Source of the DNA: a virus
Lineage: Duplodnaviria; Caudoviricetes
Direction: 5' to 3' (one strand)
Virus record (IMG/VR): IMGVR_UViG_3300022221_000265
Coordinates: 1 to 61,216 of that record
DNA length: 61,216 nucleotides
Below are positions 3,605-56,757 of the stretch, piece by piece (the first letter of the stretch is position 1; every line of letters begins with the position of its first letter). A model generated the notes under the pieces. That model worked only from the letters and a program-made list of their open reading frames with translations, was not told where the DNA came from and ran no database searches. The position numbers and the translations under genes were made by a program.

Positions 3605-3680
3605 TCCCCGGTAGCTCAGTTGGTAGAGCAAATGACTGTTAATCATTGGGTCGGCGGTTCGAGCCCGTCCCGGGGAGCCA
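3605..3680 (+). tRNA. tRNA-Asn (GTT); its 3' part is the prophage attL
   Basis: 76 nt cloverleaf: TCCCCGG/CCGGGGA acceptor, AATGA-CTGTTAA-TCATT anticodon arm, GGCGG-TTCGAGC-CCGTC T arm, CCA end. Confidence 0.97.
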
Positions 3681-5231
3681 CACGGCCTTACTGAGCACCG
3701 CCCCCCCTTGAGTCATAAGTTTAAGGGGGTGGTATTCAACCACGGCAATCTTGTCTTTGATCAATATCTTGTCGATAAACAGCTGGAAAAAATCCCTCGC
3801 CTTTTTTGGGCTATCCATTGTTTTAATTATGCCGGTTAACAACGATCCCAGCTCCACGAGGTCTTCTGGTTTGATTTGAAATTGTGGGGGAGTTTCATTT
3901 TCTAATACAGATCTATTTGTAGACAGAGAGGTGAGCTCGTCCTTTATCGATCTCAGTCTGCTGGTTAAATCTGACAGGTTCGGGGTGTCGGTTCCATGCA
4001 GTTCCAACACATCAAATAAATTTCGCTGTCGTTCCTTTAGCTTTTTTATTTTTTTATCAATATCTATAATTTTTTTACTTTGATCTTTATCCCATGTATT
4101 ACAAAGACCACCGATCTCCTGGGCAACATCAATAAGCCGACCGCTATTAAATAATGTGCTACAGATATCAGCAACCAAAAAAGAATCCAGATCCCTGGCG
4201 CTGATCCGTCGAGCTTTATGTTTTCTGTTTTTCAATACGTTGCTGCAGATATAATACCAGTACCGCTTGGATCTTCCTTTCGAGCTAGTAATATGCAAAG
4301 GAGAACCACACTCCCCGCAAGTCAGCAGTCCAGTAAATATATATGAACTATTAGGGGAGCCGCTGTCGGTGTTGTTTCGATCGGACTGCAGCCTTTTCTG
4401 GGTTCTTTTCCAAAGATCATCAGAAATAATTGCCTCGTGGCTGTCGACAATAATCCACCTTGATCGATCGTTTTGTTTTCCTGTTGCTCGGTTGGTTCTG
4501 CCAAATACCGACTTGCCTCTCACTGTCTCATTTTTTAATAAATAACCTATAACCGTTTTATTCCATCTGGCCCCTCTGTTTTTATAGCCATTGTCGTTTA
4601 ACCATAAAGCTATAGACTTGGCGCCCAGTCCTTTGTTTGCTTTTAATTCAAATATTTTTCGACAAGCGTCTTTTTCATCAGGGTGAGGAGTTAGTCTTTT
4701 TCTTTTTGGGTTGTCGATATCCGGGACCACCATAAAGCCAAAAGGTGGCCGCCCTCCGTTCCAGTAACCTTGTTTTGCATTTGCAATCATTCCCCGCATG
4801 GTGTCCCTGGATGTGTCTCGGCTTTTTAGTTCATCCTTCATCTGGTAAATAGTTTCAAGCACAAAACCGTCAGTGGTCTCTGGATCAATATCAACGGTTA
4901 TATATTTAATGAACGTGCCAGCAGCTCGGACCCTGTGCCTGTTTATCGGCCCGTTAACGCTGTTACGACTAAAGCGAGACGTGTCCCAGGTAATAAAAAA
5001 ATCGACCTTGTTTATTTCACAAAATCGGATGGCGTCCTCGAGTTCGGGCCGGTTACCTCTCCAAGCTGACCGTGCAGTCCCTTCGGTGAATACATGCAAT
5101 ACTTTGGCGTCAAGGTCTTCGGCACACTTATGCCCTGCCTCTATTTGAGCAGGAATAGATACTTCCTTTTCTGCCTGTTTCCGGTCACTAACTCGGGCGT
5201 GAATAATGGCGGTCTTTTGTTGGTCAGTCAT
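3639..5231 (-). CDS. Large serine recombinase (prophage integrase); C-terminus reads through the tRNA antisense
   Basis: ARVS catalytic motif, WDTSRFSRN, recombinase domain, CGECG...YYIC zinc ribbon, coiled coil. Confidence 0.93.
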   Translation of the reverse strand: MTDQQKTAIIHARVSDRKQAEKEVSIPAQIEAGHKCAEDLDAKVLHVFTEGTARSAWRGNRPELEDAIRFCEINKVDFFITWDTSRFSRNSVNGPINRHRVRAAGTFIKYITVDIDPETTDGFVLETIYQMKDELKSRDTSRDTMRGMIANAKQGYWNGGRPPFGFMVVPDIDNPKRKRLTPHPDEKDACRKIFELKANKGLGAKSIALWLNDNGYKNRGARWNKTVIGYLLKNETVRGKSVFGRTNRATGKQNDRSRWIIVDSHEAIISDDLWKRTQKRLQSDRNNTDSGSPNSSYIFTGLLTCGECGSPLHITSSKGRSKRYWYYICSNVLKNRKHKARRISARDLDSFLVADICSTLFNSGRLIDVAQEIGGLCNTWDKDQSKKIIDIDKKIKKLKERQRNLFDVLELHGTDTPNLSDLTSRLRSIKDELTSLSTNRSVLENETPPQFQIKPEDLVELGSLLTGIIKTMDSPKKARDFFQLFIDKILIKDKIAVVEYHPLKLMTQGGAVLSKAVWLPGTGSNRRPND

Positions 5232-5728
5232 TTTTTAATTTTATATTTATTAATGATTCTTTGAATGTGAGTTAACGTCAGCTCCTCACCTAGTTCTGCC
5301 TTAATCATTTTTTTAATATCAGGGTGAGGCATTTCGGCCTGGGCGTAAGCCAGGATCAATTTTATCCTCTGCAGTCGTTTGAACTTTGCAAACAGTGGGA
5401 CCCTGATCCTCACTCTGTCCCTCTGTTCGCCCTCCAGGTTGACCTCGTCGAGAATCTGCCAGACAACTAGAAACTGGTCGACGCCAATCGATGCCGCGAT
5501 GCGTATCCATATCGATGACAGGCCCACCTCGGCCAATTCTGCCAGGCGAGGGTCGGCCAGAGGCGCGGCGTCGTTTTTAGTGCAGACATCCAGGTACCCA
5601 CCCCCCTCGGTGGGGGTGGGGGGGTGTGTATGCCGACCCCCCACCCCTACCCCTGAGCCTGGTGTTCTGGGGGTTGTGGGCTGCATAACGTCTGTCCTAC
5701 TGCGCTTTTGATCTTCTGCCATGGTCAT
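5228..5728 (-). CDS. Putative Mor/C-like transcriptional activator
   Basis: IAASIGVDQFLVVWQILD...IRVP resembles the Mor dimerisation region; C-terminal HTH-like LTLTHIQRII. Confidence 0.5.
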   Translation of the reverse strand: MTMAEDQKRSRTDVMQPTTPRTPGSGVGVGGRHTHPPTPTEGGGYLDVCTKNDAAPLADPRLAELAEVGLSSIWIRIAASIGVDQFLVVWQILDEVNLEGEQRDRVRIRVPLFAKFKRLQRIKLILAYAQAEMPHPDIKKMIKAELGEELTLTHIQRIINKYKIKK

Positions 5729-5963
5729 AAGCTCCTGATCTGTATAGGTCGGGGTGTGGGTCTACTGCGCTTTCTGACATTAAACGCAGTACAGAGGAGA
5801 TCCCGGAGGCTGGTGTTTTAGGCCGTTCCATAGGCGAGTTCCGGGGCCGTGCATGGCCCTGCTGCAGGCGTTGCAATCCATAGGTCTGAGGATTAAGGCA
5901 GGGGGCGGCTATCAATGTTCTAGGCGGCTGGCGGACGCGCAAATAGGCCTTTGTGCTAGTCAT
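5697..5963 (-). CDS. Hypothetical phage protein
   Basis: 88 aa ORF overlapping both neighbours in the operon. Confidence 0.45.
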   Translation of the reverse strand: MTSTKAYLRVRQPPRTLIAAPCLNPQTYGLQRLQQGHARPRNSPMERPKTPASGISSVLRLMSESAVDPHPDLYRSGAYDHGRRSKAQ

Positions 5964-6963
5964 TATTAATTTTCCTGATCAGTGGTGTCATGGGTGTCTC
6001 GATTTTTGCCAGTGGGCTGCTCTTATGGACCACCTGAGCCAAGCGTCGGGCAGCGACATGAGCATATATGTCTGAGGTTTTGGGGTCAGCGTGCCCCATC
6101 AAGGCCTGTATGGTTAGGGTATTAACCCCGTCCTCTGCCAGTTCGGTACCGTACAGGTGGCGGGCGGCCTTAGGGCTGAGCTCTCTCCTGGGAACACCGG
6201 CGGCCTCTCCATACTTGATAATCATTTCCCTGATAGCTTTCACCTTAATGCGGCGATTCTCTCCATGGTAGTCATGTGCTGGGATGGTCCTGTTCCTGGT
6301 TGAAATAAAAAGGACCTTCTCACCGTTATCCAGGAGGCGGTCGACCTGCTGCAGCTCAGGGTGGCCGAGATAGGCCTGAATAAATAAAGAGGCATCCAGT
6401 GGCATGGGAACCAGCCGCTCCTTGTTTCCTTTCTCAGTAATACGCACCACCAGCTGCTTATATTTTTTTTCGTCCAGGTAAAAGACCAGGTTTGACTCGT
6501 TGAGCTTTGAAACAAACGACGGGCGCAGGCCTCCACCGATAAATAATGAGAGGATCGTGGCATCCCGTAGGCCCTGGAAAGTATCAAGGTCAGGCTGTTT
6601 TAATAATTTTTCTGCACTGCTTAACTGCATCCCGAAAGGCAGGGGCCGGCCTGCTTTGGGGTAGATAAGATCCTCAGCTGGGTTTGTGTTGATCTTCTGG
6701 TTTTTAAAAAGCCATTTATAAAAACCACGGATGGCAGCAATTAAAGGTCGGCGGGTCCTGGCCGACAAACCTTGTTCATGGGCGTGCATGCTGGAAAATT
6801 GCACCAGGTCGTCCCGGGTTAACTCCAGCAGCTGTTTGTCGTTATCAGTGGACCAGTCGACCAGCCTCTCCAGGAAGTTCTTATACTTGTTAGCCGTGGC
6901 CTCAGCATTGCCAACAGTCAGCAGGTGATACTGGGCAAAGTCATTAATTAACTCTTTTTCCAT
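5956..6963 (-). CDS. XerC/D-like tyrosine recombinase
   Basis: Core-binding region (IAAIRGFYKWL...NPA), GLR, EKGNKER, SPKAARH, LMGHADPKTSDIY. Confidence 0.9.
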   Translation of the reverse strand: MEKELINDFAQYHLLTVGNAEATANKYKNFLERLVDWSTDNDKQLLELTRDDLVQFSSMHAHEQGLSARTRRPLIAAIRGFYKWLFKNQKINTNPAEDLIYPKAGRPLPFGMQLSSAEKLLKQPDLDTFQGLRDATILSLFIGGGLRPSFVSKLNESNLVFYLDEKKYKQLVVRITEKGNKERLVPMPLDASLFIQAYLGHPELQQVDRLLDNGEKVLFISTRNRTIPAHDYHGENRRIKVKAIREMIIKYGEAAGVPRRELSPKAARHLYGTELAEDGVNTLTIQALMGHADPKTSDIYAHVAARRLAQVVHKSSPLAKIETPMTPLIRKINND

Positions 6964-16935: not shown

Positions 16936-17550
16936 TCACCCCACCCCCTGCATCGTTTCCAGCACCGACTCAAGATCCGGCCCGGCATAGATCGCGGCGT
17001 TGTTTATGTTGGTAATGCCCAGCACGGTCATGACCACCAGCAGGGGCTGCTCGGCGTTGCTGGTTTTCATAATCTGTTTGGCCAGGGTATGGCGGAACCA
17101 GTGCGGCGAACCGCCTCGGCGCAGGCCTGCCAGCTTCACCCACTCGGCCAGGCGCTGCTCAAAACTGCGAACCGATAAACCATCGCCGCGACGGCTGAGG
17201 ATCAAAGGCTCGTCTGCTACCTCGGCAAAGCCCATCTGGCGACGAATAGACAACAACGATCGCAAGGCCCGGCTGGATTGTTTGTTAAGAAAAACGTGAT
17301 AAGTGCGGCCGCCCTTATTAATGGCACCGCGCACAGTAAACTTGTTCTCCCTTAAGGCCTGGCGGGCATCGTCGCAGGTCATGCCGGCCAGCACGCTCAC
17401 CCGCACACCCGTGGCCAGGTCGAACTGCATCCAGGCCAGATCACGCTTGGCCAGCACGTCGTCCACCCGGCGCACGGTCTTGAGCAGGTCGCGCCGCTCA
17501 TGGGCTAAAAAATAGCGATCAAAAACTTGTCTGGGTTTTTTATATGTCAT
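16936..17550 (-). CDS. Short tyrosine recombinase (catalytic domain only)
   Basis: RD...ATGVRVS, NKGG, SPHWFRHT, LGITNINNAAIY; no core-binding domain. Confidence 0.85.
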   Translation of the reverse strand: MTYKKPRQVFDRYFLAHERRDLLKTVRRVDDVLAKRDLAWMQFDLATGVRVSVLAGMTCDDARQALRENKFTVRGAINKGGRTYHVFLNKQSSRALRSLLSIRRQMGFAEVADEPLILSRRGDGLSVRSFEQRLAEWVKLAGLRRGGSPHWFRHTLAKQIMKTSNAEQPLLVVMTVLGITNINNAAIYAGPDLESVLETMQGVG

Positions 17551-17912: not shown

Positions 17913-18084
17913 GGTCTGCCCTCCTTTTTTGTCTTTCCCTTGCGATGATCTGCAGGCACTTGTTGACAGGCTCATTTTGTAAAGCGTGATCAAACGATCC
18001 AACAGCCTCGCGCATCTTCGGACCCGCCAGTTCATAAGCGACCCTTAGATCCAGATCGTCCTGATTGTTTGCCTTGTCGCTCAT
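17896..18084 (-). CDS. Hypothetical phage protein
   Basis: Overlapping early ORF. Confidence 0.5.
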   Translation of the reverse strand: MSDKANNQDDLDLRVAYELAGPKMREAVGSFDHALQNEPVNKCLQIIARERQKRRADHGGDH

Positions 18085-18217
18085 GTAACGCCCTCAGCAA
18101 TTCATCACCAAAAAAAGCCATGACCAGCGAACCCTTAAGCACAAACTGATCGCCCGGCTGCAGGTTGTCGTCGACCTGGGTCAGGCCGATCCGTTTTAAA
18201 GCAGCGGGTGCTTCCAT
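18032..18217 (-). CDS. Small early protein (VMAFFGDEL motif), homologue of 49541-49717
   Basis: ATG 18217; 18 of 33 ungapped identities with the islet protein. Confidence 0.75.
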   Translation of the reverse strand: MEAPAALKRIGLTQVDDNLQPGDQFVLKGSLVMAFFGDELLRALHERQGKQSGRSGSKGRL

Positions 18218-18384
18218 ACCTTTTCCCACCAGTAAAGCCAGGCACCGATCACGGCCACCACCGACATCACAATCAAAAAAGAAACCAGCCCCGAGAACAG
18301 CGAGGCCGCGCACACAAAGAACAGGCCGGCCATTAAAAGACCTAACAAAAAATCCTTAAGCATATCGACAAATAATTTTTTCAT
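18196..18384 (-). CDS. Small membrane protein
   Basis: Two transmembrane-like segments. Confidence 0.55.
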   Translation of the reverse strand: MKKLFVDMLKDFLLGLLMAGLFFVCAASLFSGLVSFLIVMSVVAVIGAWLYWWEKVWKHPLL

Positions 18385-18899
18385 CGTTTGCTTTCCTTGC
18401 CCTGTTGGTGCATGTTTTTCAGTCGGTCGAGCAGCTCCAGCTTGGTGCGGATCCCTTCATTAATTGACGCCTCAAGCTTGATCATTTCCTTGTCGTTAAT
18501 GTCGCCGTCCTCAAGTGACTCGCGCATCACCTTGGCCGTGTGACCATCGGCCTCTGCATTCTTGGCCCAGATATCCAGCAGGTGCTGGTCAGACACAAAT
18601 TTAAGATCGGGGTAACGAATGAACACACCGCCCAGGGTCAGGCAATAGGCATCAGCTATCTGATAATCATCAGCAACGAGTTGAACAGTGACCGACTCCT
18701 CCAGGCCGAGCTGGGCGTCGTTTTCGGGGTTGGCTTTGTTGGATAGATAACCGGGGGACTTCATGTTAGCGCGGGCCGCCATGGCCACCGCACCCTCCAT
18801 CCCACTGAATTTATAATTATGGATCGTGTTATAAATCGCCGTCTTTAGATGGCTTGCCTTTAAGTGGCTAAACATTGTGAGCTCACCTCCTCCATTCAC
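18381..18899 (-). CDS. Phage regulatory CII-like protein
   Basis: GAVAMAAR....YLSNKANP....L...E...LGGVFI...EDGDINDKE; located after the Cro-equivalent gene. Confidence 0.75.
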   Translation of the reverse strand: MNGGGELTMFSHLKASHLKTAIYNTIHNYKFSGMEGAVAMAARANMKSPGYLSNKANPENDAQLGLEESVTVQLVADDYQIADAYCLTLGGVFIRYPDLKFVSDQHLLDIWAKNAEADGHTAKVMRESLEDGDINDKEMIKLEASINEGIRTKLELLDRLKNMHQQGKESKR

Positions 18900-19025: not shown

Positions 19026-19193
19026 TTATTTCTGTTCCTGCTCCTGTTTTTCACTAAAACTTGTTTCCAGTCGCACAATCACCTCGCTATTACGGCTCCG
19101 GCTATTTTTTTTGGCCGAGGCATCAATCTGTTTTAAAAGTCCCTTTGGAAAGCGAATGGACTGGCTTTTATCTTTTGCAGTAGCTCGTTTCAT
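19026..19193 (-). CDS. Arc-family ribbon-helix-helix protein (Cro position)
   Basis: SIRFPKGLLKQIDASAKKNSRSRNSEVIVRLETSF. Confidence 0.85.
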   Translation of the reverse strand: MKRATAKDKSQSIRFPKGLLKQIDASAKKNSRSRNSEVIVRLETSFSEKQEQEQK

Positions 19194-19243
19194 AATTAAA
19201 TCATTCTCTATATATATAAGAGTCGGCTTATTTAGTAGCCCTA

Positions 19244-19284
19244 ACATGCCCCTATTATGGCCCATAATGGGCTATTGCTGTCAA
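19244..19284. promoter_or_regulatory. Operator/promoter region of the lysis-lysogeny switch
   Basis: Overlapping palindromes ATTATGG-C-CCATAAT and GCCCAT-A-ATGGGC; minus-strand TTGACA...CATAAT with a long 19 bp spacer. Confidence 0.55.
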
Positions 19285-19687: not shown

Positions 19688-20282
19688 CTTATTATTTTTA
19701 TCCGTCATGCTGTCAGGTTGTGGATCCCTGGTCACCTACCAGCCCCCCGCTGCGCCAGACGTCACCCACCCCACCAGCCTGATCATCAACAAAAGCAAAA
19801 ACCAGCTATGGCACCAGCTGCTGCAAAAACTGACCAGTGATTTTTTTGTGGTCAACAACATCGAAAAGGCCTCGGGGTTTATTAACCTCAGTTTCAGCGC
19901 CGAGCCGACCGAGTACCTCGACTGTGGTCAGCTCAATATCTCCGACCCCATCGACCACACCCAGATCACCCCGTTCCCAGGGGCAACCCCTCACCTGGTC
20001 TATAACGAGAGCGTCGACATCCTGGCCCCGCGTCGAATAGACAGAAAGATAGCCCTAAGCGGCCGGGTAAATCTGCTACTCACCCAGCTGCGCAACAAAC
20101 AAACCCGCCTGGCCATCAATATAAAATACATCGTCAGCAAGTCCGGCACCATTAACCGCTATGCCTTTAATGACACCATCACCTTTAACAGCAACCAGCA
20201 AAAGCAATTCCCCGGCGCCCCCACGGTCTGCCAGTCAAATGGCAAGCTGGAGCAGCGACTGCTCGACCTAACTCGACTCTGA
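19674..20282 (+). CDS. Lipoprotein co-transcribed with the repressor
   Basis: Lipobox LSGC after a hydrophobic signal. Confidence 0.8.
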   Translation: MKPANLLFLSVMLSGCGSLVTYQPPAAPDVTHPTSLIINKSKNQLWHQLLQKLTSDFFVVNNIEKASGFINLSFSAEPTEYLDCGQLNISDPIDHTQITPFPGATPHLVYNESVDILAPRRIDRKIALSGRVNLLLTQLRNKQTRLAINIKYIVSKSGTINRYAFNDTITFNSNQQKQFPGAPTVCQSNGKLEQRLLDLTRL

Positions 20283-20633
20283 CGCAAACCGATAAAGCAC
20301 CTCCGCCAGCTTTTCAAAGGTGGTTCGCTTGCGTTGATACTGGCCATACTTTTGCAATATCGCGATATTGGCATCATCCTCCAGGCCCGTAATAAACAGG
20401 ATCGGCAACTCGGGCCGCATTTCACGCAAGGCCCTGGCCACGGCCACCCCGTCCAGCTCACTGGTGTGCAAAAACACATCCAGCACCGCGCAATCATAAA
20501 GATCAGGCATGCCCCGAAAGCTGCGAATAGCATCCTCCGCCAGGGTAAAGCTGCCGACGCTAATATCATGAACATTTAAAATGGACCGATAAAAATCAAC
20601 ATATCCCGCATCATCGTCCAGCACTAAAACCAT
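20268..20633 (-). CDS. Single-domain response regulator (receiver)
   Basis: VLVLDDD, AVLDV (phospho-Asp), DGVAVA, PILFITG, conserved K. Confidence 0.85.
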   Translation of the reverse strand: MVLVLDDDAGYVDFYRSILNVHDISVGSFTLAEDAIRSFRGMPDLYDCAVLDVFLHTSELDGVAVARALREMRPELPILFITGLEDDANIAILQKYGQYQRKRTTFEKLAEVLYRFASESS

Positions 20634-20891: not shown

Positions 20892-21128
20892 ATGAATGAT
20901 CGTCAGGTGCATCTGCTTCAAAAAATAAAAACACAAATGGGGGAACAATCACAAAGGAGAGACTACTGGCTCCCGGCGCTGGTGGCGCTGATCCTGTCAG
21001 TGCTCATCACAGTTCAAATTGTAAAAATAAAAATCAGAAACCACGGCGGGCACTGTGTGGTCCAGCAAAGTCAACTCACTGGCATGCCAGTGCAGATCCG
21101 CTATGCTTCCCCGGAGAAAACAAGGTAA
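20892..21128 (+). CDS. Small single-TM protein
   Basis: GGAGG RBS, ATG 20892, hydrophobic WLPALVALILSVLITVQIV. Confidence 0.6.
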   Translation: MNDRQVHLLQKIKTQMGEQSQRRDYWLPALVALILSVLITVQIVKIKIRNHGGHCVVQQSQLTGMPVQIRYASPEKTR

Positions 21129-21138
21129 AGGGGAGACT

Positions 21139-21636
21139 GTGAGACATAGAACATTAATTGCTTATTTGCTGTTGATTTTTTCGTCACCCGCCACGGCGAT
21201 CGAGCTTCACCTGGAACATGGCCCCTCGACCAGCTTCATGGCCCGTCCAGAGCACTATCAAACAAGCACCTATACAGGCTGGACAGTCAGGTATGGCGGT
21301 GGTTTCTTTGCCGAGCTTCATCAGGGCGGGTGGGTTGGCGAGGCCTTTGGCAGGTTGTCGGCCCTGTCGGTGGGGCTTCGCTCCCGTGGCCGGTTTTTTG
21401 CCGAAACTACACTGGGGGCGGTCAGCATGCACAATTACGATCCGGAGCAGTTAGACGGCAATCGTCAGGTCATGTTCATGCTTGGGGTGGGGGCTCGAGT
21501 CGAGGACCTCTTTGTTACCCTCCGCCTGCGCCATATATCCAATGCATCGAGCGTGACCGGCTCATCCGACCAAAGGCAGGACGAAAGAAACAACGCCGCC
21601 GACTTTGTCGTGCTCTCGGTTGGTGTCGACTTCTAG
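21139..21636 (+). CDS. PagL-like lipid A deacylase / acyloxyacyl hydrolase beta-barrel
   Basis: GTG start, signal peptide, amphipathic strands, RHISNA His-x-Ser motif, C-terminal Phe. Confidence 0.7.
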   Translation: MRHRTLIAYLLLIFSSPATAIELHLEHGPSTSFMARPEHYQTSTYTGWTVRYGGGFFAELHQGGWVGEAFGRLSALSVGLRSRGRFFAETTLGAVSMHNYDPEQLDGNRQVMFMLGVGARVEDLFVTLRLRHISNASSVTGSSDQRQDERNNAADFVVLSVGVDF

Positions 21637-44760: not shown

Positions 44761-46167
44761 TTAGTTTCTTGTTGCAATAGTGGTGGCACTCTCCCCTTTC
44801 CTCTGGTTCCCCGGCGTCACGCTGACCTTGCCCGGCCGTTTGGGCGGTTTGGGTTCGCCGTCTTCATCATCAGGGTATGGGTTGATCTCTTTGCTTTGAC
44901 GTTTGAGTCGATCTTTTTCTTTGGAGGGGTCAACGCCGGCCGCTTCCAGGATGGTCTCGAAGCTAAAGCCCAGGGCTTGCCATTTGAGGGCACGATCGGC
45001 CGCCTGGTTCTGGGTCTCGGTGACACGTTCAGCAAACAGCACAGCAAAATCCTCGTTTTCTGGGTTAATGCCGTTAAGCAATAAATGCAGACGAAAACCC
45101 AGCTCGTAAACAAAGGACTGCTCATCCTGCAGGGCGTCGATCTCCTCAAAAAAATCCTTGCGTAGATCTTCCAGGATGTCCCGGCTCAGGTCTCCCACAT
45201 AACCAAACAAACCTTTGGGAGCAGGAGCACCGGCAAAGAAGGTATCCAGCAGGTGCACCACGTCGGCGATCTGGTTCAGGTTGGCGTCACCTGAGATGGC
45301 TTTGACGTCCCCCTCTCCCTGGATGACATAGTCCGCCGCCTGGTCGTACTTGTCCGCCTCGATGTCGGCTTTGTATTCGGTATAAAACTCATTGGATACG
45401 TTTTTTAGCTGGTGCACTTTGCGCTGCTGGGCCCGGGTCTTTCTCCGGATCACCAGGTCCTCCTCGGTCATGGTGAGTTTTTTCCAGGGGCCGCGAGTGG
45501 CGTCCAGATAAGGCCGACCCATGGCGCCCATGTCGTCGAAGTTGTCCGGATCAAGGCGAACCATGGACAGCCGCCAGAGGGCAAAATATTCGGTAATGGT
45601 GCCCAGGGTGAGATCATATTGCGCGTAGGCCTTGCGCGGGTCTTTGAATAAACCGGCCTCGGTAACCTGGGGCACGATGGTCTCGGAGGGCATACGCACC
45701 CCGCCCACGATCTGGTTGTCCTGGTTAAGCACCCACTGGATGGGCAGGTTCCCATCCATGATCAGCCCTCGGGCATCACTTTTGAGCTTGGCCCGTCGGT
45801 GCAGGTTGAGCCGCTGGGCGAAGGTTCGCCAGTGTTTGATCAGGGTCTTGTTGGTGCTTTCGACTTTTAACACCAGCCCACTTTTGATCGCGGTGCTAGC
45901 CATCTTGTTGTGGATACGCTTCACCCGGGTGTCGATGCGGTCCATGTGGCGAATGTCCAGGATCGCCGCCCGCAGGGTGGGGTCGACCCACATTTGCCGG
46001 GTCAGGTAGAGCATTTGATTCTCAGGGGTGGCACGTTTGCCGATCTCGGAGTTATTCACCACGATATGGCCGGCCTGGTGGTGGGCTTTATCAAGTGCCG
46101 TCTGGGGCAGTGAGCCGATCCCCAGTGTCATGTATTGTTTTTGAATGTCCAAAAGTTGTTTGCTCAT
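44761..46167 (-). CDS. Portal protein (start probably MSKQLL at 46167)
   Basis: Between terminase and MuF, ~470 aa, GRPYLD and PKGLFG motifs. Confidence 0.8.
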   Translation of the reverse strand: MSKQLLDIQKQYMTLGIGSLPQTALDKAHHQAGHIVVNNSEIGKRATPENQMLYLTRQMWVDPTLRAAILDIRHMDRIDTRVKRIHNKMASTAIKSGLVLKVESTNKTLIKHWRTFAQRLNLHRRAKLKSDARGLIMDGNLPIQWVLNQDNQIVGGVRMPSETIVPQVTEAGLFKDPRKAYAQYDLTLGTITEYFALWRLSMVRLDPDNFDDMGAMGRPYLDATRGPWKKLTMTEEDLVIRRKTRAQQRKVHQLKNVSNEFYTEYKADIEADKYDQAADYVIQGEGDVKAISGDANLNQIADVVHLLDTFFAGAPAPKGLFGYVGDLSRDILEDLRKDFFEEIDALQDEQSFVYELGFRLHLLLNGINPENEDFAVLFAERVTETQNQAADRALKWQALGFSFETILEAAGVDPSKEKDRLKRQSKEINPYPDDEDGEPKPPKRPGKVSVTPGNQRKGESATTIATRN

Positions 46168-47939
46168 GGTCCTGTCCTGAGTTTGTTTAATTGGTTGAAG
46201 TGCATAAGCCACAAATAGAACTCGGCCAGCCTGGCCTGGGCGATCGGGTCACTGGGGAGCCTGGCGGGTGCTTCGCCCAGCAGCTCCGTGCGGGTTTTCT
46301 TAATGGTGCTGATCATGGTCGGCACACCCAGGGCGCCACGGGTGACCAGGCCCCAGTTGGCTGCCATGTAGGCATCGAAAAGATCATCGCCCAGTTTGCT
46401 GTTGGCCATTTTGTAACTGGAATAGTTGGCCTTGGTGGGTTCGGGTTTGATGTTGACCAACTGCTTGCAAAGCATAAGCAGGTCGGCCACTTCCGGATCG
46501 TGGAAGTCTCTATCCTCGTAATAAGGGATCGCCGCCTGGCCATTGTGGAAAGTGGAGCGCACGGCCTGGGCCATGGCGTGCTTGACCATGCCCTCGAATC
46601 GGATCGGCGCAAAGGGCCACTCGGTCCAGGTGCTGGCCGTGCTCTCACCGTCACCGATGGCGCGACGATTAACCGGGGTCAGCCCCTCCTCGAATAATCG
46701 ATCATTGAGGCTGGTTAGCATGCCGATGCCGTAGGCATCACCCACGGCCACGTCAGGATTGAAGTATCGCCAGTACCCTAGCAGGTCCAGCTCCACCACT
46801 TTCTCGTCGGTACCTGGGGCCCACTGTTTGGAAAAGATCGGCACCGTGAACGATCCGATCTGTTCTAAAACCGTAAAGGCATACTTTGAGGACTCGGGTG
46901 TCTCGCCGTGGCCTGAGTGGTCATAGCCAAACGAGATCAGCCCGCGCTTTTTGTAAGTCTCGCCCGGCATGGGTTGCACAATTTCCAGCCCGGCCTCAAG
47001 ACCCACCTGCAGGGCCCGGCGGAGATACTTCTCCCACACCAGGTTGCGGCTGGCTGTGTTAATGCAAAGAAGCTGGCGGGTAAATTCGTCCTCACTCAAA
47101 TCGGCGCGAATGTTTTTTATAAATTGTTCCTGGAGTAGGCCGAGCTTCATGGCGTTAACCGCATTAAGCAGTGGCAGGGGGTAGTTATAGCTCTCCAGCT
47201 CCAGGTGATCCTCAGTCAACCATCCGGCCTTGATCAGGTTTTTAATGGCCGTCCTGGCTTTATTATTATGTAAGGCACCGATAACGTGATAACTCCCGCC
47301 ATCCAGCAGGTCGGTGAGTGTGTCGGCGCCCTTAAAAACACCGGTGATCCGGATCTGGGGTTTGTTCTCTGAGGTTTTGCTGGCACCCATGCGACGAGTG
47401 GACCCGAGCATGAGCAGGAAACGACTATAAAGCCGATCCTTTGGCATGTCGTCCACCTCCTCGAGGCTGGCCACTGTCAGATCGCCACCATCCACCTGGG
47501 CCATGATGCCCTCGGCAAAGGCTTTGCTCCGGTTCATAAATTCATATTTTGTATCGGCCATCTGTTGGCGGCCGGACTTATAGGCAAGGTAGTTGCTTAA
47601 GATTGAAGATCGACGAATGGCCTCCAGGTGATAGTTGAGGTTTGCGATCGACTGGGTTTGTCTGGGAGCCACAATGCCGAGCTCCTGATCGGGCTTGGTG
47701 GCGTTATGGTGCAGGGTGAAAAGTTCCTTGCAGGCAGTTTTCCCGGTACGGCGCGAGGAAAAATCGATCGTGTTCGGGTGCTGTTCCATTTCTCTCATCT
47801 TGAGAACTTGCACCGCGTCCAGTTCCACGTTGTGGACGTGCTTATGCCAGAGAGCATGATCGCCAGCGTAACGCATCACCTCAGACTCAGCGACATGCTG
47901 CATGCGGACTCGTTGCTTTGCCGATATCCGCTCGCCCAT
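46164..47939 (-). CDS. Terminase large subunit
   Basis: SRRTGKT Walker A, LEEVDD Walker B, FGYD, GDAYG and DDLFDA nuclease motifs. Confidence 0.85.
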   Translation of the reverse strand: MGERISAKQRVRMQHVAESEVMRYAGDHALWHKHVHNVELDAVQVLKMREMEQHPNTIDFSSRRTGKTACKELFTLHHNATKPDQELGIVAPRQTQSIANLNYHLEAIRRSSILSNYLAYKSGRQQMADTKYEFMNRSKAFAEGIMAQVDGGDLTVASLEEVDDMPKDRLYSRFLLMLGSTRRMGASKTSENKPQIRITGVFKGADTLTDLLDGGSYHVIGALHNNKARTAIKNLIKAGWLTEDHLELESYNYPLPLLNAVNAMKLGLLQEQFIKNIRADLSEDEFTRQLLCINTASRNLVWEKYLRRALQVGLEAGLEIVQPMPGETYKKRGLISFGYDHSGHGETPESSKYAFTVLEQIGSFTVPIFSKQWAPGTDEKVVELDLLGYWRYFNPDVAVGDAYGIGMLTSLNDRLFEEGLTPVNRRAIGDGESTASTWTEWPFAPIRFEGMVKHAMAQAVRSTFHNGQAAIPYYEDRDFHDPEVADLLMLCKQLVNIKPEPTKANYSSYKMANSKLGDDLFDAYMAANWGLVTRGALGVPTMISTIKKTRTELLGEAPARLPSDPIAQARLAEFYLWLMHFNQLNKLRTGP

Positions 47940-49301: not shown

Positions 49302-49380
49302 CTAAGCCACCCGAGCAAGCCCAGAGGGCAAAACCAGCCTCAATTTTTTGGTGCCCAGTTCGCCCGTCTCGGGGAGCCAC
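49302..49380 (-). other. attR of the prophage, with the detached integrase C-terminal tail
   Basis: 19 bp tRNA-3' copy (1 mismatch) at 49362-49380; minus frame WLPETGELGTKKLRLVLPSGLARVA*. Confidence 0.85.
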
Positions 49381-49485
49381 TTCCTAGTTACACCAAGTAT
49401 CTCAATCACTTAGTTTCTTATAAAAATTTACTCCATTTCGGGGTAAATTTTTTTCATTCAAATACAGTGTATTATATGGGCCAAT

Positions 49486-49503
49486 GGTTCGAGCCCGTCC
49501 CGG
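49486..49503 (+). repeat. 18 bp exact copy of tRNA-Asn 3656-3673
   Basis: GGTTCGAGCCCGTCCCGG. Confidence 0.85.
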
Positions 49504-49540
49504 ACTAGCGTATTTCGCAACTATGAACCAATTCAAGGAC

Positions 49541-49717
49541 ATGACCAAAAAGAAACGATCTCCAGCTATTAATGTTAAAAAGATGAAGGTTTCCGATAAC
49601 CTGAAACCTGGCGAGCGAGTTAATGTCTCAGCGAAAATGGTAATGGCATTTTTTGGGGATGAATTAATGAGGGAGCTTACAAAAAGGACTCAGGCAAAGA
49701 GTAAGAAAAAAAGTTAG
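49541..49717 (+). CDS. Small basic protein, homologue of prophage gene 18032-18217
   Basis: AAGGA RBS; VSDNLKPG...VMAFFGDELMR. Confidence 0.75.
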   Translation: MTKKKRSPAINVKKMKVSDNLKPGERVNVSAKMVMAFFGDELMRELTKRTQAKSKKKS

Positions 49718-49827
49718 AGTATTAGCTATTTTAAAGCGCATGCTGTAACTGCCAAACTTCGGCGGTCCATTAGCTTAGCGTATCGAAAGCTTTACTTTTT
49801 TCATTGATGACTTTACGGTAATTTAAA

Positions 49828-50745
49828 ATGGGCGTGATAAGAAAATCAGACCCTGAAACAGGGGTGGTCACAACAAAATGCGATACATGGGATGACTTCA
49901 TCTCCGAAATGAGGATCGACGAAGGACGATATATTGGTGATCATATATACCGTGGACATGGAAGCCTAAGTTGGAAACTAGCATCAGTTTTTGAGCGTTG
50001 GATTGATGGACTGAAACAAGGAAATCCAGAGCAAATTATAAGCGATCTGTTTTCAGTTGGAGCACTTGAAAAATTTAGAAATCTATATCTTAAGCCCTTC
50101 ATGTATTTTGCTCAGCGAATTCCAGGCGAACAACTTCCAGATAAAGATGATATTGACGCTTGGCTTGCGCTTGGTAGGCATCACGGACTCATTACACCAA
50201 TTCTGGACTGGAGTCGAAGCCCGTATATTGCTGCCTATTTTGCTAGTATGGAATCCTTCAAAATTGCAGCAGATAAACACCGCCTATTTATAGCTGAAAA
50301 ACACGGCGTGGATGCAGCCAATAAATACGGACCTACATTTGACAGCGTAATGATGGGAATGGGCGGTCCAACTTTACTCCCCCATGAGCCATTCACAATT
50401 TGGGCATTAGCATGCCACGACGATACCTTTATCAAGGATGAATTCAGGCTCTTAGATAAGCCAGAGTTCAGAAATGACAGACTTCACGCTCAGCGGGGAT
50501 TATTCACATTCCTCACACATGATGTACATGTCGATGTAGAAAACTACTTAGCTAGTCGCAATCTAGGCAATCGGTTAGAAAAGTTCATCGTGCCTGGCCA
50601 AGAAGCTGGGAAAGTGCTTCATGACTTGAATCTTATGGGAATCAACAAAGCTGCTTTATTCCCTGATATAACCGGAGCTGCCATGCAAGCAAATATGAGC
50701 TCACATAGATTTAATCATGGTTCAGATAGACGTCCACAAAACTAG
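49828..50745 (+). CDS. FRG domain-containing protein
   Basis: YRGH....W.L, RHHGLITPILDWSRSPYIAAYFA, NDRLHAQRGLF, L..MGIN...LFPD. Confidence 0.88.
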   Translation: MGVIRKSDPETGVVTTKCDTWDDFISEMRIDEGRYIGDHIYRGHGSLSWKLASVFERWIDGLKQGNPEQIISDLFSVGALEKFRNLYLKPFMYFAQRIPGEQLPDKDDIDAWLALGRHHGLITPILDWSRSPYIAAYFASMESFKIAADKHRLFIAEKHGVDAANKYGPTFDSVMMGMGGPTLLPHEPFTIWALACHDDTFIKDEFRLLDKPEFRNDRLHAQRGLFTFLTHDVHVDVENYLASRNLGNRLEKFIVPGQEAGKVLHDLNLMGINKAALFPDITGAAMQANMSSHRFNHGSDRRPQN

Positions 50746-50876
50746 CTACTCGAATAATCATATAGCTAATGCTCTATAAACTCAGACTAAATTGGAAGGT
50801 TAATATAGTGAGGTTGTACTCTGAGTCTGTCTGACAGCTTTATTCGGAGTGATTTTATTTTAACAAGCAATTTGGC

Positions 50877-50984
50877 CTATGGCACACATAAAGAACGCTT
50901 AGAGCCGTCCTTATTTCGGCAGAATTGGGGGAGTAACTGAATTCTGAGGGTTTTGGTTCGTAGTAAGCCCGTCCCGGGGAGCCA
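50877..50984 (-). other. Second attR-like site with a second LSR-type tail
   Basis: Exact 19 bp AGCCCGTCCCGGGGAGCCA at 50966-50984; minus frame WLPGTGLLRTKTLRIQLLP...VP*. Confidence 0.8.
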
Positions 50985-50998
50985 AACACTAATTCACT

Positions 50999-51024
50999 AA
51001 ACCAGCTTTCAAGCTGGTTTTTTT
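50999..51024 (+). terminator. Original tRNA-Asn terminator
   Basis: AAACCAGCTT-TC-AAGCTGGTTT plus T tract, 14 bp after the last tRNA-3' copy. Confidence 0.8.
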
Positions 51025-51222: not shown

Positions 51223-52095
51223 CTATACAACAAGACTCTTTAAATACATCTCAAACTCTGATTTGAGTTCATCATGTTTCAAACCGTACTCTACCGTAGC
51301 CTGTAAATAGCCTAATTTACTACCACAGTCATAACGCTTACCTGTAAATGGGTATGCATATACATCCTCTTCATTCATTAACGCAGCAATTGCATCCGTT
51401 AATTGAATTTCATTCCCTGCTCCGCGCTTTGTAACTTTAAGATATTTGAATATAGTAGATGTTAGGATATACCTGCCTACAACAGCTTGTGTAGAAGGAG
51501 CTACATCTGGTTTTGGCTTTTCTACTATTTCCTGAATTTTTGCCATTCCACCATCTGTGCTAGCTGTCTTGACTATACCATATTTGTCAGTTTCATCCTG
51601 TTCAACTTCCTCAACCCCTAAAATACTGGAGTGGGTTTTTTCATATTTTGATACCATCTGTTTCATACATGAATTAGCCCCCCCATCAATTAAATCGTCT
51701 GCCAAAATAACAGCAAAAGGGTCATTACCAACTACAGGTTCAGCACATAGTACTGCGTGCCCAAGGCCTAAAGCCTCTGCTTGTCGAATATAGATACACG
51801 ATACATGTTCAGGAATAATGCCTCTAACCATATCCAGAAGCTTTGTCTTATTCTTTGCCTCAAGCTCCGCTTCCAACTCATATGCCTTGTCAAAATGGTC
51901 TGGAATTGAGCGTTTATTTCTACCTGTTACAAAAATCATTTGATCAATCCCCGCAGAGACAGCTTCTTCTACTGCATACTGAATAAGCGGCTTATCAACA
52001 ATTGGTAGCATCTCTTTAGGGCTGGCTTTGGTAGCAGGTAAAAATCTGGTTCCCATGCCAGCAACAGGGAATACGGCTTTTCTAATGGTTTTCAT
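51223..52095 (-). CDS. galU: UTP-glucose-1-phosphate uridylyltransferase
   Basis: [37 protein letters not shown]. Confidence 0.97.
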
Positions 52096-52101
52096 TTATA
52101 A

Positions 52102-53430
52102 TTAAACTTTACTTCTTCCAATTGAATAATACTGAAAGCCCAAATTTTTCATCATTTCGGGATCGTAAATATTCCTCCCATCAAAAATGACTGAATCAGC
52201 TAGAGATGATTTAACTTTATCAAAATCTGGGCTTCTAAAAGCACTCCACTCAGTAATAACGATTAGAGCATCTGCTCCTTCCAAAGCTTGCTCAGGTGAG
52301 TCACAAAGCCTTAAATCTTTATGATTACCATAGATTCTTGTTGTCTCCTCCATGGCTTTGGGATCATAAGCCTGAACTGAAGCTCCGCTTTCCCATAATC
52401 TCTCAATAAGAACACGACTAGGTGCCTCTCTCATGTCATCAGTATTAGGTTTAAATGAAAGCCCCCATAGAGCAAATTTTTTACCTTTCAACTTATTGTC
52501 ATAATGTTGAGATATTTTATTATATAAAACTTCTTTTTGACTGGCATTGACATCTTCTACACTATTTAGAAGACGTGGTGTATACCCGTACTGTTCAGCA
52601 GTTCTCGCTAGAGCATTAACATCTTTAGGAAAACAAGAGCCACCATAACCTGCACCAGGATATATGAAGTGATAACCAATTCGTGGATCTGAACCAATCC
52701 CAATTCTTACATTTTCAATATCTGCACCAGTCCTTTCTGCAATATTTGACAACTCATTCATGAAACTTATTTTTGTAGCCAACATGGCATTTGCAGCATA
52801 TTTGGTCAGCTCTGCAGATTTAACATCCATAATCACAAGACGATCATGATTACGATTAAAGGGTGCATACAAACTCTTAAGTATTTCTGCAGTCCTTACG
52901 TTTTCAGTACCAATAACAATACGATCAGGTTTCATGAAATCTTCTAATGCAGCACCTTCCTTCAGGAACTCTGGGTTTGATACCACGTCAAAATCAACAT
53001 TAAGTCCTCTAGTGCTTAAGACTGACTTTATCTCAGATTCAACTTTATCAGCGGTTCCTATAGGAACTGTGGATTTATCAATAACAATTTTATATTCTTC
53101 CATATGCTCACCAATACTTTTAGCAACAGCCAAAACGTATTGAAGATCAGCCGAACCATCCTCATCTGGAGGGGTGCCTACAGCAATAAACTGGAACAAC
53201 CCATGATCAACACCCTGCTTGATATCTGTAGTAAAAGAAAGGCGACCTGATTCAATATTTTTCTTCACAAGTTCATCAAGACCAGGCTCATATATAGGTA
53301 TTCCACCTGAATTCAATAGGTCTATCTTTGATTTATCTATATCAACACAGATAACATCATTCCCCACCTCAGCCAAACATGTCCCTGTTACAAGTCCAAC
53401 ATATCCTGAACCAAAGATTGTGACTTTCAT
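52102..53430 (-). CDS. ugd: UDP-glucose 6-dehydrogenase
   Basis: [34 protein letters not shown]. Confidence 0.95.
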
Positions 53431-53589
53431 AAAATCTCCATTTGAAATTTATAAATGAACTGTTTTTTACAGCGCAACAAACTATTTCGCTATATTATAG
53501 TGCGATTATACATTAAGTAGTTTATGTAACAATATGTTAGAACAGATTTATTTAATACATATAAATATTTCGTGTTGTACAAAATGTAC

Positions 53590-55563
53590 TCAATGAAGAG
53601 GCTTTTGAGGTATAACATTACTATCCGACTTCTTTACATCTTCGCTACTCTCGGGGTGTTTTGATTTTGAGAGTTTCTGATTTTCCCAAACTGGATCTGT
53701 GGTTTGTGATTTTGGGTTAAACTCAATTACCGCATCTTTCAAAATAGCGACAACATTTTCGGCATCAAAATTCATACAGCTTTTCTCAAATAATTTAAGA
53801 TATTGAATTACAACATCGTAAGGTAACTCATTTTCTTCAGCTCTCATTATCTTCGGATGTTCAGTTCCTGAGGCGTTATCGCCTATTAGCAATTCCTCAT
53901 ATAGCTTTTCGCCCGGTCGAAGCCCTGTATATTTTATTTCTATTCCGCTTCGCCGACCCGCATCATCCTTAACATCGTGACCACTTAGATGGATCATACT
54001 TCTTGCTAAATCTACAATCTTAACTGGTTCTCCCATATCAAGCACAAATACGTCCCCACCTTCACCCATTGTAGACGCCTGTAAAACCAGTTGAGAAGCT
54101 TCCGATATTGTCATGAAATATCTTGTGATTTCTGGGTGAGTAACTGTTACCGGCCCACCTTTTCTTATTTGCCCCCTAAATAATGGTACAACAGACCCTG
54201 ATGAACCAAGGACATTACCAAATCTCACCATTGAAAAAATTGGTTTAGTATATTTCCTAGCTAAAGCCTGTAATACTAATTCAGCCATTCGTTTTGTTGC
54301 CCCCATTACATTTGTTGGACGAACGGCTTTATCTGTAGATATGAGAATAAATTTCTCGATATTCGCAGCAATTGCTGCTTCAGCACATCTCCATGTACCA
54401 ATTACATTATTCCATACTCCCTCTATAGGGTTTGATTCTACTAATGGAACATGTTTATAAGCAGCAGCATGATATATTACCTGTATATTCAGAGATTTTA
54501 ATACTGTTTCTACTTTTTCTTTATTTGTAATGGAGCCCAAAACAGGAATGATATCTATTAATTTATTTTTCTCATTCATGTTTAACTCTGAATCAATTTT
54601 ATAGAGCGCAAACTCACTTAGCTCAAACAAAACAAGTCTTTTTGGTGAAAATCTAACAATTTGTCTACACAATTCTGACCCAATTGACCCTCCTGCACCA
54701 CTAACAAATATTGACTTTCCACGAATACTAGAATCGAGCAATGGTTCTCTTGGTGAAACAACATCTCTACCTAACAAATCTTCAATTTTAATTTCTGTAA
54801 TATCACTGACATTTGCTTTGCCAGACAGCAACTCTACCATCCCAGGCACCGATTTAATTTGTACTGGGTAGGGTTCAAGTTTTTCTAAAATCTCATAACG
54901 ACGTTTATGTGTTACAGACGGCAAGGCCAGCAGAACATCTTTTACATTATATTTATCAACTAATTGTTGTAATTTATCTGAAGGATAAACTTTTATACCG
55001 TGAATCTCACTGCCATATAAATCAGTATTATCATCAAGAAAAGCAACAGGTCTGTAATCATTACCAATCTGTAAGATTTTTGTAATTTCTGCACCTGTTG
55101 CCCCTGCGCCGTAAACCACAACAGATTGTTTATAATTATCTACCGCACTAGCATGCAGCAGACTACGTATAAAAAATCGACTTCCACCTATAAATAAAAA
55201 ACTAATCCCCCAAAATAAAATAAATACCGACCTAGGTATCCCTTTTATTTCAAAGAGAATTACAAATAGAACGAACATAAATGTTAAGAGCGTAATTGCC
55301 TTGGCAATAGCTACAATCGCTTTTTGCCCTATATACCTTATTACTGCACGATACAATCCTATTCTTAAGAAAATAGGTATGCTTACGAGTGGAATAAAGA
55401 AAAACAAAGGAATGGCTTGTTTAATATTGACTGGAAACCATTCACCAAGCCTGATTGAAAAAGCTAACCATATTGCACATGACAACAATATCATATCAAA
55501 CAATATCAATATTATTTTTTTATAATTTGGCGATATGGTGGCAATTAATCCAGAGATATTCAT
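53590..55563 (-). CDS. Nucleoside-diphosphate sugar epimerase/dehydratase (WbpM/CapD/PglF-like)
   Basis: N-terminal TM segments, GAGGSIGSE, HAAAYKHVP, STDKAVRPTNVMGATKR. Confidence 0.93.
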   Translation of the reverse strand: MNISGLIATISPNYKKIILILFDMILLSCAIWLAFSIRLGEWFPVNIKQAIPLFFFIPLVSIPIFLRIGLYRAVIRYIGQKAIVAIAKAITLLTFMFVLFVILFEIKGIPRSVFILFWGISFLFIGGSRFFIRSLLHASAVDNYKQSVVVYGAGATGAEITKILQIGNDYRPVAFLDDNTDLYGSEIHGIKVYPSDKLQQLVDKYNVKDVLLALPSVTHKRRYEILEKLEPYPVQIKSVPGMVELLSGKANVSDITEIKIEDLLGRDVVSPREPLLDSSIRGKSIFVSGAGGSIGSELCRQIVRFSPKRLVLFELSEFALYKIDSELNMNEKNKLIDIIPVLGSITNKEKVETVLKSLNIQVIYHAAAYKHVPLVESNPIEGVWNNVIGTWRCAEAAIAANIEKFILISTDKAVRPTNVMGATKRMAELVLQALARKYTKPIFSMVRFGNVLGSSGSVVPLFRGQIRKGGPVTVTHPEITRYFMTISEASQLVLQASTMGEGGDVFVLDMGEPVKIVDLARSMIHLSGHDVKDDAGRRSGIEIKYTGLRPGEKLYEELLIGDNASGTEHPKIMRAEENELPYDVVIQYLKLFEKSCMNFDAENVVAILKDAVIEFNPKSQTTDPVWENQKLSKSKHPESSEDVKKSDSNVIPQKPLH

Positions 55564-55719
55564 ATATGGCTTCTATTGATGATAATTAAAATTTGATTTA
55601 TTTTCATAGTATATATCATATTTTTACTGATGGTTTTTATCGGTATTTATATATACACAGTATACTATTGCGTGTTTTATCTATAACACATTAATAATTA
55701 TAGAATTTTTTAATAATTA

Positions 55720-56757
55720 TTACAGTTCTTGTTGCTCATCAGCACCAGCTTTATATTTTATTGCTATTATTAGAAGGGGTAAATAAGCAATTATAACGCC
55801 AAGCATACCGTCTATTCTCTTACTCGCAACCAGGTATGCCAAGGGAAACAACCAAAATAAGTTTATTGCTCCAACGGCTAGTGATACTTTAGTATGAGAT
55901 TTGTATTTACGTGAAATGTATTGATAGGCATGGTTACGGTGTGCTTTATGAAGCTTCTCTTTCCTAATTAATCGTCTGATGAGAGTAGTTGTAGCATCAA
56001 CAACAAAAACTCCAATGAGTATAATCCACCCCCAAAATAATTCTTCTGCAAACCAAGCTGCCTGTAATGAAAACACACCTAAAGTCATTCCGAGAAATCC
56101 ACTTCCAACATCGCCCATGAATATTTTTGCTGTTGGAAAGTTCCAGAACAAAAACCCTAATACAGCAAAACTTAAGATTAGTGGCATCACCCAGTTACTA
56201 GTATCAGGAAAAAACAAAAGGTAAAGTAAAGTTCCACCTAAGCATACTGTAATTGCCTCTATCCCTGCTATTCCATTAATCCCGTCCATAAAATTAAACA
56301 AATTCAACAACCACACCAGACAAATTGCAGCTAGCACATACCCCCAATATCCTAATTCAAGGGTATAGCCAAATATGACAACGGAATCCAAACCACCCTG
56401 CATGACTAATGCCATAATAACTGCAACAAAATGTAAGAGTAGTCTCCACCTTGCTTTTACATGACTATGGTCATCAAGCCAACCGACTATTGCAATAATA
56501 CTGCCAGGTGCGAAAATCATCCAAAAATTCGTCGAGTCAAGTATATTTTGCAGCCAAAAAACAACTGACATTAATAATGTCACAATAACGACTGAACCTC
56601 CTCCTCCATTAGGAGTCGCCATGGTATGTGAGCTACGATTATTTGGGATTGCAAGAAGGCTCTTATCGATAGCATAACGCCTAATAAAACCTGTAAGCAT
56701 ATATGCTACGATACTAACAAACAGACACCATACTAATATGGAAACATTATTATGCAA
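55720..56757 (-). CDS. Undecaprenyl-phosphate sugar-1-P transferase (WbpL/MraY-like)
   Basis: RSSH..TP.GGG, GWLDD, NFMDGINGIA, IFMGDVGS, HR.HAYQ. Confidence 0.92.
   Translation of the reverse strand: MHNNVSILVWCLFVSIVAYMLTGFIRRYAIDKSLLAIPNNRSSHTMATPNGGGGSVVIVTLLMSVVFWLQNILDSTNFWMIFAPGSIIAIVGWLDDHSHVKARWRLLLHFVAVIMALVMQGGLDSVVIFGYTLELGYWGYVLAAICLVWLLNLFNFMDGINGIAGIEAITVCLGGTLLYLLFFPDTSNWVMPLILSFAVLGFLFWNFPTAKIFMGDVGSGFLGMTLGVFSLQAAWFAEELFWGWIILIGVFVVDATTTLIRRLIRKEKLHKAHRNHAYQYISRKYKSHTKVSLAVGAINLFWLFPLAYLVASKRIDGMLGVIIAYLPLLIIAIKYKAGADEQQEL

Follow-up and report, generated by a model that had tools for sequence, protein, structure and literature searches.

Among the small recombination directionality factors (RDFs) known for large serine recombinases (LSRs) is Orf7 of phage TP901-1. 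SprB (YotN) of SPbeta, for which a YokA-YotN fusion has been solved (9dxd), is about 60 residues long; small RDFs of this type are encoded on the same phage as the LSR, in a position not adjacent to the LSR gene, and are predicted to dock where DBD2 of the recombinase joins its coiled coil. The available text of Shin et al. 2025 (sections 18, 20 and 21) has unrelated RDFs all predicted at this DBD2/coiled-coil junction, and reports 7 of 11 tested predicted RDFs as functional and 4 of 11 as false positives. The small prophage protein described here resembles the SprB-type RDFs in size, gene location and predicted docking site, but it has no sequence similarity to any solved chain and was not placed with SprB/YotN; it forms a separate family, which we found only with one LSR clade of phages of ~40-46 kb.

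A second copy of its gene lies in a short islet outside the prophage. IMEX elements are integrated elements with no recombinase of their own, which use host XerCD. The islet would likewise rely on a recombinase acting in trans, but this would be the phage LSR and not a host Xer protein, and the islet carries a directionality cofactor. According to the available text of Guedon et al. 2017 (PMC5704250), which deals with CIMEs and accretion at tRNA genes, CIMEs are devoid of integration genes, keep attL and attR, and stand in tandem with a functional element for which the same gene is the target. The islet has this arrangement too; unlike in CIMEs, its partner is a phage with a serine recombinase and not an ICE or IME, it keeps a candidate RDF gene, and the islets of two hosts share only the small gene and the ends, with different cargo.

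Our joint best reading, which is in silico and to which we give a probability of roughly 0.6, is that the small protein belongs to a new family of RDFs and that the islet is a CIME-like element with a retained RDF copy. The window, by which we mean the whole stretch of DNA that was analysed (61,216 bp), is described in Table 1.

Table 1. Positions of the features discussed in the text, on the numbering of the window
Feature	Position	Strand	Basis or remark
Window, virus record IMGVR_UViG_3300022221_000265	1-61,216		61,216 bp; Duplodnaviria; Caudoviricetes
Host genes	up to 3541		uvrB fragment, aminotransferase, GspH-like pilin
tRNA-Asn and prophage attL, core CCGGGGAGCCA at 3670-3680	3605..3680	+	ARAGORN; sequence; half-site table
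LSR, 530 aa	3639..5231	-	Pfam Resolvase, Recombinase and Zn_ribbon_recom domains
Phage copy of the small protein, 61 aa, candidate RDF	18032..18217	-	ORF; family; predicted LSR complex
CII (CP76) regulator, conserved upstream neighbour of the phage small gene	18381..18899	-	Pfam PF06892, 3e-18
Arc-like gene	19026-19265		leftward operon
Prophage attR, phage P half-site and core (rem1)	49346..49379	+	reverse strand encodes WLPETGELGTKK
Native spacer 3' of tRNA-Asn, 104 nt	49380..49483	+	homologous to L058 3088-3193 (A6)
Islet left end, decayed tRNA-Asn copy followed by P'-type half-site	49484..49531	+	inverted repeat I11, 11/12
Islet copy of the small protein	49541..49717	+	58 aa from ATG 49541; 64 aa from ATG 49523
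FRG-domain protein, 305 aa, islet cargo	49828..50745	+	Pfam FRG 4e-16; PADLOC PDC-S15; phrog_4962
Islet right end, P-type half-site and core CCGGGGAGCCA (rem3)	50951..50984	+
Terminator-like hairpin after displaced tRNA 3' end	50999..51020	+	comparable hairpin at L058 site
Polysaccharide cluster, low GC (32-42%)	51223-61216		starts at ~51.2 kb

The prophage and its attachment sites

Host genes precede the prophage, and polysaccharide genes follow the islet. The polysaccharide cluster encodes an NTP transferase, a UDP-glucose dehydrogenase, a Polysacc_synt_2 protein, a GT4 glycosyltransferase and two asparagine-synthase-like proteins. The order of uvrB, aminotransferase, pilin-like gene, tRNA-Asn and polysaccharide genes may resemble that at the edge of the Pseudomonas O-antigen locus.

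The LSR, a homologue of the SPbeta integrase YokA (9dxh, E 4e-10), lies at one end of the prophage, and a packaging region ending at 49169 lies at the other. The LSR frame extends through the attL core into the gene for tRNA-Asn, and the conserved WLP of the protein is encoded by the reverse complement of the tRNA acceptor end; integration therefore swaps the last 10-25 residues of the recombinase. A similar case is that of the tyrosine integrase of Mx8. The tails of LSR homologues fall into two classes, namely 'GTGSNRRPxD', encoded by the tRNA T-arm in the prophage form, and 'RDLLGTK', encoded by the P arm in the phage form. At attR, whose core occupies 49369-49379, the ORF 49302-49409 encodes WLPETGELGTKK, the C-terminal tail that the LSR has in the free phage (compare alignment A7). 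From the att cores and this phage-form tail, the prophage therefore spans 3670/3680 to 49369/49379. In records that represent the phage form, a 12-nt inverted repeat flanks the core CCGGGGAGCCA; it is perfect in the viral record G002, with 23 nt between the arms.

The leftward operon comprises, in order, the Arc-like gene, the CII/CP76 gene, an ORF for a 62-aa membrane protein, the small gene, an unassigned ORF, and genes for a short tyrosine recombinase, a DnaJ-like protein, an HNH protein, a primase and a second tyrosine integrase, followed by a 166-aa ORF and the LSR. The small gene overlaps the upstream membrane ORF by 22 nt, and its stop codon overlaps the ATG of the next ORF.

Besides the LSR, the prophage encodes two further recombinases, a 335-aa XerC/D-like tyrosine integrase (5956-6963) and a 204-aa tyrosine recombinase (16936-17550), the last of which consists of the catalytic domain only and is kept in the viral records G001, G002 and G091 and in the Microcystis phage yong1. 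The 166-aa ORF (5228-5728, - strand) overlaps the LSR start by 4 nt and is annotated in yong1 as 'middle operon regulator'. Between the Arc switch and the tail genes are a receiver-domain protein (20268-20633, - strand) and a PagL-like lipid A deacylase (21055-21636, + strand), which are likely to be morons. The putative large terminase (46164-47939, - strand) has its sole relative in the phage collection in yong1 (55% identity), and the lineage of the prophage is near-absent among isolated phages and common in IMG/VR.

The small protein family and the LSR clade

An earlier note on this DNA had aligned the phage small protein, without recognising a family, to an ORF product encoded just outside the prophage. 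We recovered this alignment as quoted, with 18 identities in 33 ungapped positions and an exact run of nine residues (VMAFFGDEL), and the second copy indeed starts only ~150 nt beyond the attR core. BLASTP between the two small ORFs gives 21/43 identities with an E-value of 4e-14, and on sequence comparison the similarity of the copies is beyond chance. A search of the whole record returned these two copies only. In the islet copy the phage residues D17, N18, L19, V32-L40, L44 and R47 are retained (alignments A2/A4); relative to the phage copy there is a 2-residue deletion, and the N-terminal part of the predicted interface discussed below is divergent (A4). The islet ORF (49484-49717, + strand) would encode 77 aa from its first ATG and likely starts at 49523 or 49541.

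A phmmer search of 1.84 billion representative proteins recovered 11 proteins at E<=0.001, nine of which are 56-64 aa long and share the motif P..L.KKG(I/L)..V(T/D)DNL.PG...(A)FFG(D/E)E(L/I); the other two, P0002 (5260 aa, E 6e-5) and P0010 (2644 aa, E 7.6e-4), were taken for chance or repeat matches. The profile search brought in 21 proteins, all unnamed except for an NCBI 'hypothetical protein' of Saliniradius amylolyticus, and lengths across the family are 55-77 aa. The absence of a recognised family also stood up, as the small protein had no match in Pfam, PHROG, PADLOC or the PDB. When 11 family members were scanned against Pfam none gave a match at a meaningful E-value, the CIII model included; the family profile (A4) run against all PDB chains did not retrieve YotN, the best E-value being 0.059 to unrelated proteins; Foldseek of the monomer model against the PDB gave nothing at E<=0.001; and the ESM Atlas returned only scores under 0.9. 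Nor were matches obtained with tblastn against 50,697 phage records or with a word-indexed protein search using the single sequence, and neither the two-sequence alignment, searched in viral and genome contigs, nor the Saliniradius protein (P0022), searched in genome contigs, led to related loci. Five motifs of the family are absent from the supplement of Shin et al. (100,832 characters), which may omit RDF sequences. The family tree left the branching of islet and phage copies without resolution. An AlphaFold2 monomer model built on a 23-row alignment (pLDDT 83) has two helices, a short N-terminal one and one at residues 29-54, with a conserved coil between them.

A degenerate DNA pattern scan of viral contigs returned 50 stretches, of which hmmsearch accepted only two, those in G001 and G002, as true family members. 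Both records have the order Arc, CII, small gene, unassigned ORF, short tyrosine recombinase, DnaJ and HNH, and their LSRs are 43-53% identical to that of the window. The same layout is seen in yong1, where a 56-aa ORF right after CII is a weak positional match (E 0.004). Single-protein searches of viral contigs with the CII gene, the ORF following the small gene and the FRG gene gave no relatives, and the FRG gene was not found in G001, G002 or yong1.

For a measure of co-occurrence, the family profile was run over the full length of 80 viral records, the best of 120 in which an LSR homologue was matched; their LSRs are 34-53% identical to that of the window. A match to the small protein family was present in 44/80 at E<=0.05 (20/40 and 24/40 in the two halves of the set) and in 40/80 at E<=1e-5; when only records with a completeness of at least 90% are counted the figure is 30/35 (14/16 and 16/19), the family not being found in the remaining five (G011, G032, G054, G066 and G067). 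The gene is tightly coupled to CII: a CII-like ORF stands directly upstream on the same strand, often overlapping, in 39 of 45 loci, and of the other six, four are centred on a second weak match with the gene at the edge, one is at a contig end and in one no CII was found. The second weak match (G035, G039, G041 and G043; loci L162, L163, L188 and L189) covers profile positions 5-20 at E 0.004-0.007, sits in a 918-aa ORF ~1.4 kb from the small gene, and may be due to chance.

Starting from CII instead, we obtained 22 records with a relative of this regulator. The LSR clade is represented in 14 of them (E<1e-160), each of which also has the small gene. It is missing from five of the eight CII-bearing records that lack the LSR clade (G091, G086, G088, G089 and G092), and the three that have it, without an LSR region, are fragments (21-43% complete); the LSR-less contrast comes from only two complete records. 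One of these, G091 (97% complete), has tyrosine integrases only, with no serine recombinase, and there CII is followed by a 113-aa ORF and the short tyrosine recombinase, the small gene alone being missing. The other, G086 (100% complete), has only a distant LSR and no small gene. The 166-aa ORF next to the LSR, the obvious alternative candidate for an RDF, was set aside: it is present both in G091, where it adjoins a tyrosine integrase, and in G086, and therefore does not follow the LSR clade. The small gene is thus found on the same element as the LSR and is co-inherited with it (30/35; 14/14; absent from 5/8, the other 3 being fragments), though part of this co-occurrence reflects shared ancestry, because the LSR phages are related to one another.

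Complex prediction with the small protein (23-row alignment) used residues 165-530 of the LSR (9-row alignment), which was the sole candidate partner folded. Three runs gave ipSAE values of 0.66, 0.64 and 0.63 (median 0.64), and three controls gave 0.18, 0.02 and 0.00; the pass mark for this score, reached by 116/157 solved complexes and 2/215 mismatched pairs, is only a rough guide here, own alignments having been used. Contacts agree by at least 76% across the runs, and the partner pLDDT is at least 73. The predicted interface is made up of LSR residues 341-376 and 451-502, which flank the coiled-coil insert of DBD2, and takes in the invariant LSR residues F481, F482, F485 and Y500 (alignment A7). 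In the model, residues 14-19 of the small protein, among them the invariant D17 and N18, would add a strand to LSR 495-499, and F35, F36 and E39 would pack on LSR 465-485, a helix containing F481, F482 and F485. Binding of the cognate LSR at DBD2 near the coiled coil, the site predicted for known RDFs, was found by prediction only.

These results suggest that the small protein probably represents a new RDF family for one LSR clade. We propose that it would be made from the early leftward operon, just after CII, as the RDF of the prophage LSR; that, judging from the model, it would dock on the LSR at the junction of the zinc-ribbon domain (DBD2) and the coiled coil; and that, by analogy with other RDFs, its binding would switch the enzyme from attP x attB integration to attL x attR excision. 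LSR binding (by prediction only), RDF activity and the mobility of the islet are all points that we infer. The earlier note had offered a conserved small factor of the element family, for example an RDF, and this suggestion has become the best-supported reading: homologues with a common motif co-occur with the LSR clade and are linked to LSR phages and to att-type sites, which flank the gene in two islets, and the complex prediction with the LSR that the note called for places the small protein at the canonical RDF site (ipSAE 0.64).

The islets beside the tRNA-Asn gene

The islet is 1.47 kb long and has no recombinase; the region 49504-50950 contains only two ORFs of note. At its left end an 18-nt T-arm sequence identical to the live tRNA ends at 49503, and the ATG at 49523 lies inside the P'-type half-site (49517-49531). 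The P' arm (49520-49531) complements the P arm of the right end (50953-50964) at 11 of 12 positions, and each arm lies 12 nt from the core centre, a spacing also seen in G002, whose attP inverted repeat is perfect; a binomial estimate puts the chance of such complementarity at this fixed offset at ~1e-5 to 1e-4. The bases at the centre of symmetry differ, being AC on the left (49504-49505) and GG on the right (50978-50979). Upstream of the islet small gene the + strand showed no promoter-like site. Flanks of attL and attR type and the absence of a recombinase gene are two features that the islet shares with CIMEs. In the contigs of three sediment runs, one of them a possible source of this DNA (contigs only, at a coverage too thin to be informative), there was no att-site joint and no prophage-free or islet-free form. 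The FRG protein matches the PADLOC model PDC-S15 (PDLC04937) at E 9.4e-51 through residues 10-292, covering model positions 9-248 of 254; this full-length match to the model makes it a candidate defence gene.

A metagenome scan for the family returned four loci, two of which (L060 and L061) are false, being antisense to a 432-aa ORF. Locus L058 corresponds to the host locus of the window, in a related bacterium that has no prophage at the site: an aminotransferase (74% identical to that of the window) and a GspH protein (34% identical) are followed by tRNA-Asn and a homologous spacer. The family member encoded here (profile E 2e-17) is 34% identical to the islet copy of the window. The right end has the same P arm and core, with a terminator; the P' arm of the L058 islet is degenerate, agreeing with the consensus at 6 of 12 positions. 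The cargo differs, consisting of a zinc-ribbon ORF, a DUF6941 protein and an HTH regulator, among which no defence system was recognised, the matches being confined to models of HTH regulators. The two islets have no gene in common other than the small gene, and in both the islet lies between a copy of the tRNA T-arm and a phage-type P half-site with core. As the same layout occurs in the prophage-free L058, the islet copy belongs to the native flank of the tRNA, and the prophage, as read from the sequence, is inserted between the live tRNA and the islet.

The decayed tRNA-Asn T-arm of each islet matches the live tRNA of its own host, at 18/18 positions in the window (49484-49503) and 17/18 in L058 (3194-3214), and the live tRNAs of the two hosts differ in the T-stem. 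Half-site selection, gene conversion or independent insertions could account for this match.

From its sequence we would best describe the islet as CIME-like, an element with no recombinase that holds a candidate RDF copy and a candidate defence gene. It would occupy a second, now decayed, copy of tRNA-Asn. Its left end, with the tRNA T-arm and a phage-type P' half-site, is attL-like; its right end, with a phage-type P half-site, the tRNA acceptor end and a terminator, is attR-like. Having kept only the RDF gene and cargo, it would depend on an LSR supplied in trans. The earlier note had supposed that the islet copy might mimic, poison or sense the phage copy; our observations suggest that it is part of an att-flanked element without a recombinase rather than any of these.

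The differing centres (AC and GG) and the 6/12 P' arm of L058 mean that the islets may be immobile relics. More tentatively, and with the odds against it, it is conceivable that they are a family of minimal integrase-less hitchhikers of LSR phages, each consisting of an attP-like site, an RDF gene and swappable cargo. Such elements would enter a spare tRNA-Asn by means of the phage LSR and leave with the LSR and their own RDF, either alone or with the prophage, in the latter case by recombining the prophage attL with the islet attR. Under this proposal the RDF gene would start inside the P' half-site, and the cargo in the window would be the candidate defence gene.

Alternative explanations and implications

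Tight coupling to CII would also suit a CII-linked function. The small protein could thus be an early-operon factor outside recombination, either a partner or stabiliser of CII like lambda CIII or a host-takeover peptide, in which case the LSR docking would be a false positive and the islet copy the leftover of an old related prophage. A gene directly downstream of CII on the same strand in 39/45 loci, often overlapping it, agrees with such a role, a monomer with a short N-terminal helix and one long helix would suit many peptide regulators, and 4 of 11 AlphaFold-predicted RDFs failed in the available text of Shin et al. However, CII-bearing relatives without the LSR clade lack the small gene while keeping CII and the downstream genes; both islets lack CII, yet they hold the small gene beside LSR-type att sites; control partners scored 0.18 and 0.00; and there is no Pfam match of any kind, hence none to the lambda CIII family. 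We consider an early-operon role unlikely. Far less probable still, and hardly to be expected, is a function as cofactor of the short (~200 aa) tyrosine recombinase two genes downstream: the succession of small gene, unassigned ORF and short recombinase is kept in the window, G001, G002 and yong1, but G091 has the short recombinase after CII and the 113-aa ORF with no small gene, and the islets are without this recombinase.

A different possibility accepts that the small protein binds the LSR and has the islet copy serve the host, by blocking integration or destabilising prophages of the clade, alongside the FRG effector. The available text of Shin et al. (section 21) states that RDFs inhibit attP x attB recombination besides activating excision, the window cargo is a candidate defence gene (PADLOC PDC-S15) whose FRG domain is regarded as a putative antiviral effector of the ART superfamily in the available text of PMC9503650, and the islet gene adjoins the target tRNA in both hosts. 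Against this, the immediate neighbour of the islet is an integrated phage of the LSR clade, which any block has thus not kept out; no promoter-like site precedes the islet gene on the + strand; and the L058 cargo is no recognised defence system. We think such a service to the host improbable, and retain the reading of the small protein as an RDF and of the islet as CIME-like.

The available text of Shin et al. 2025 indicates that serine integrase RDFs share no sequence or fold, so each must be found separately, and that RDFs are needed to make integrase-based genetic switches reversible. If our prediction is true, a whole LSR clade would draw its RDF from the family described here; the LSR query matched at least 120 viral contigs. 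The att sites are already evident from sequence, as a 12-nt inverted repeat with its arms to either side of the tRNA-Asn acceptor end. If the prediction is true, the islet would lack a recombinase and have kept nothing but a directionality factor and a candidate defence gene beside a phage attachment site, and would, if this is true, offer a simple route by which a small gene cassette could travel with temperate phages.
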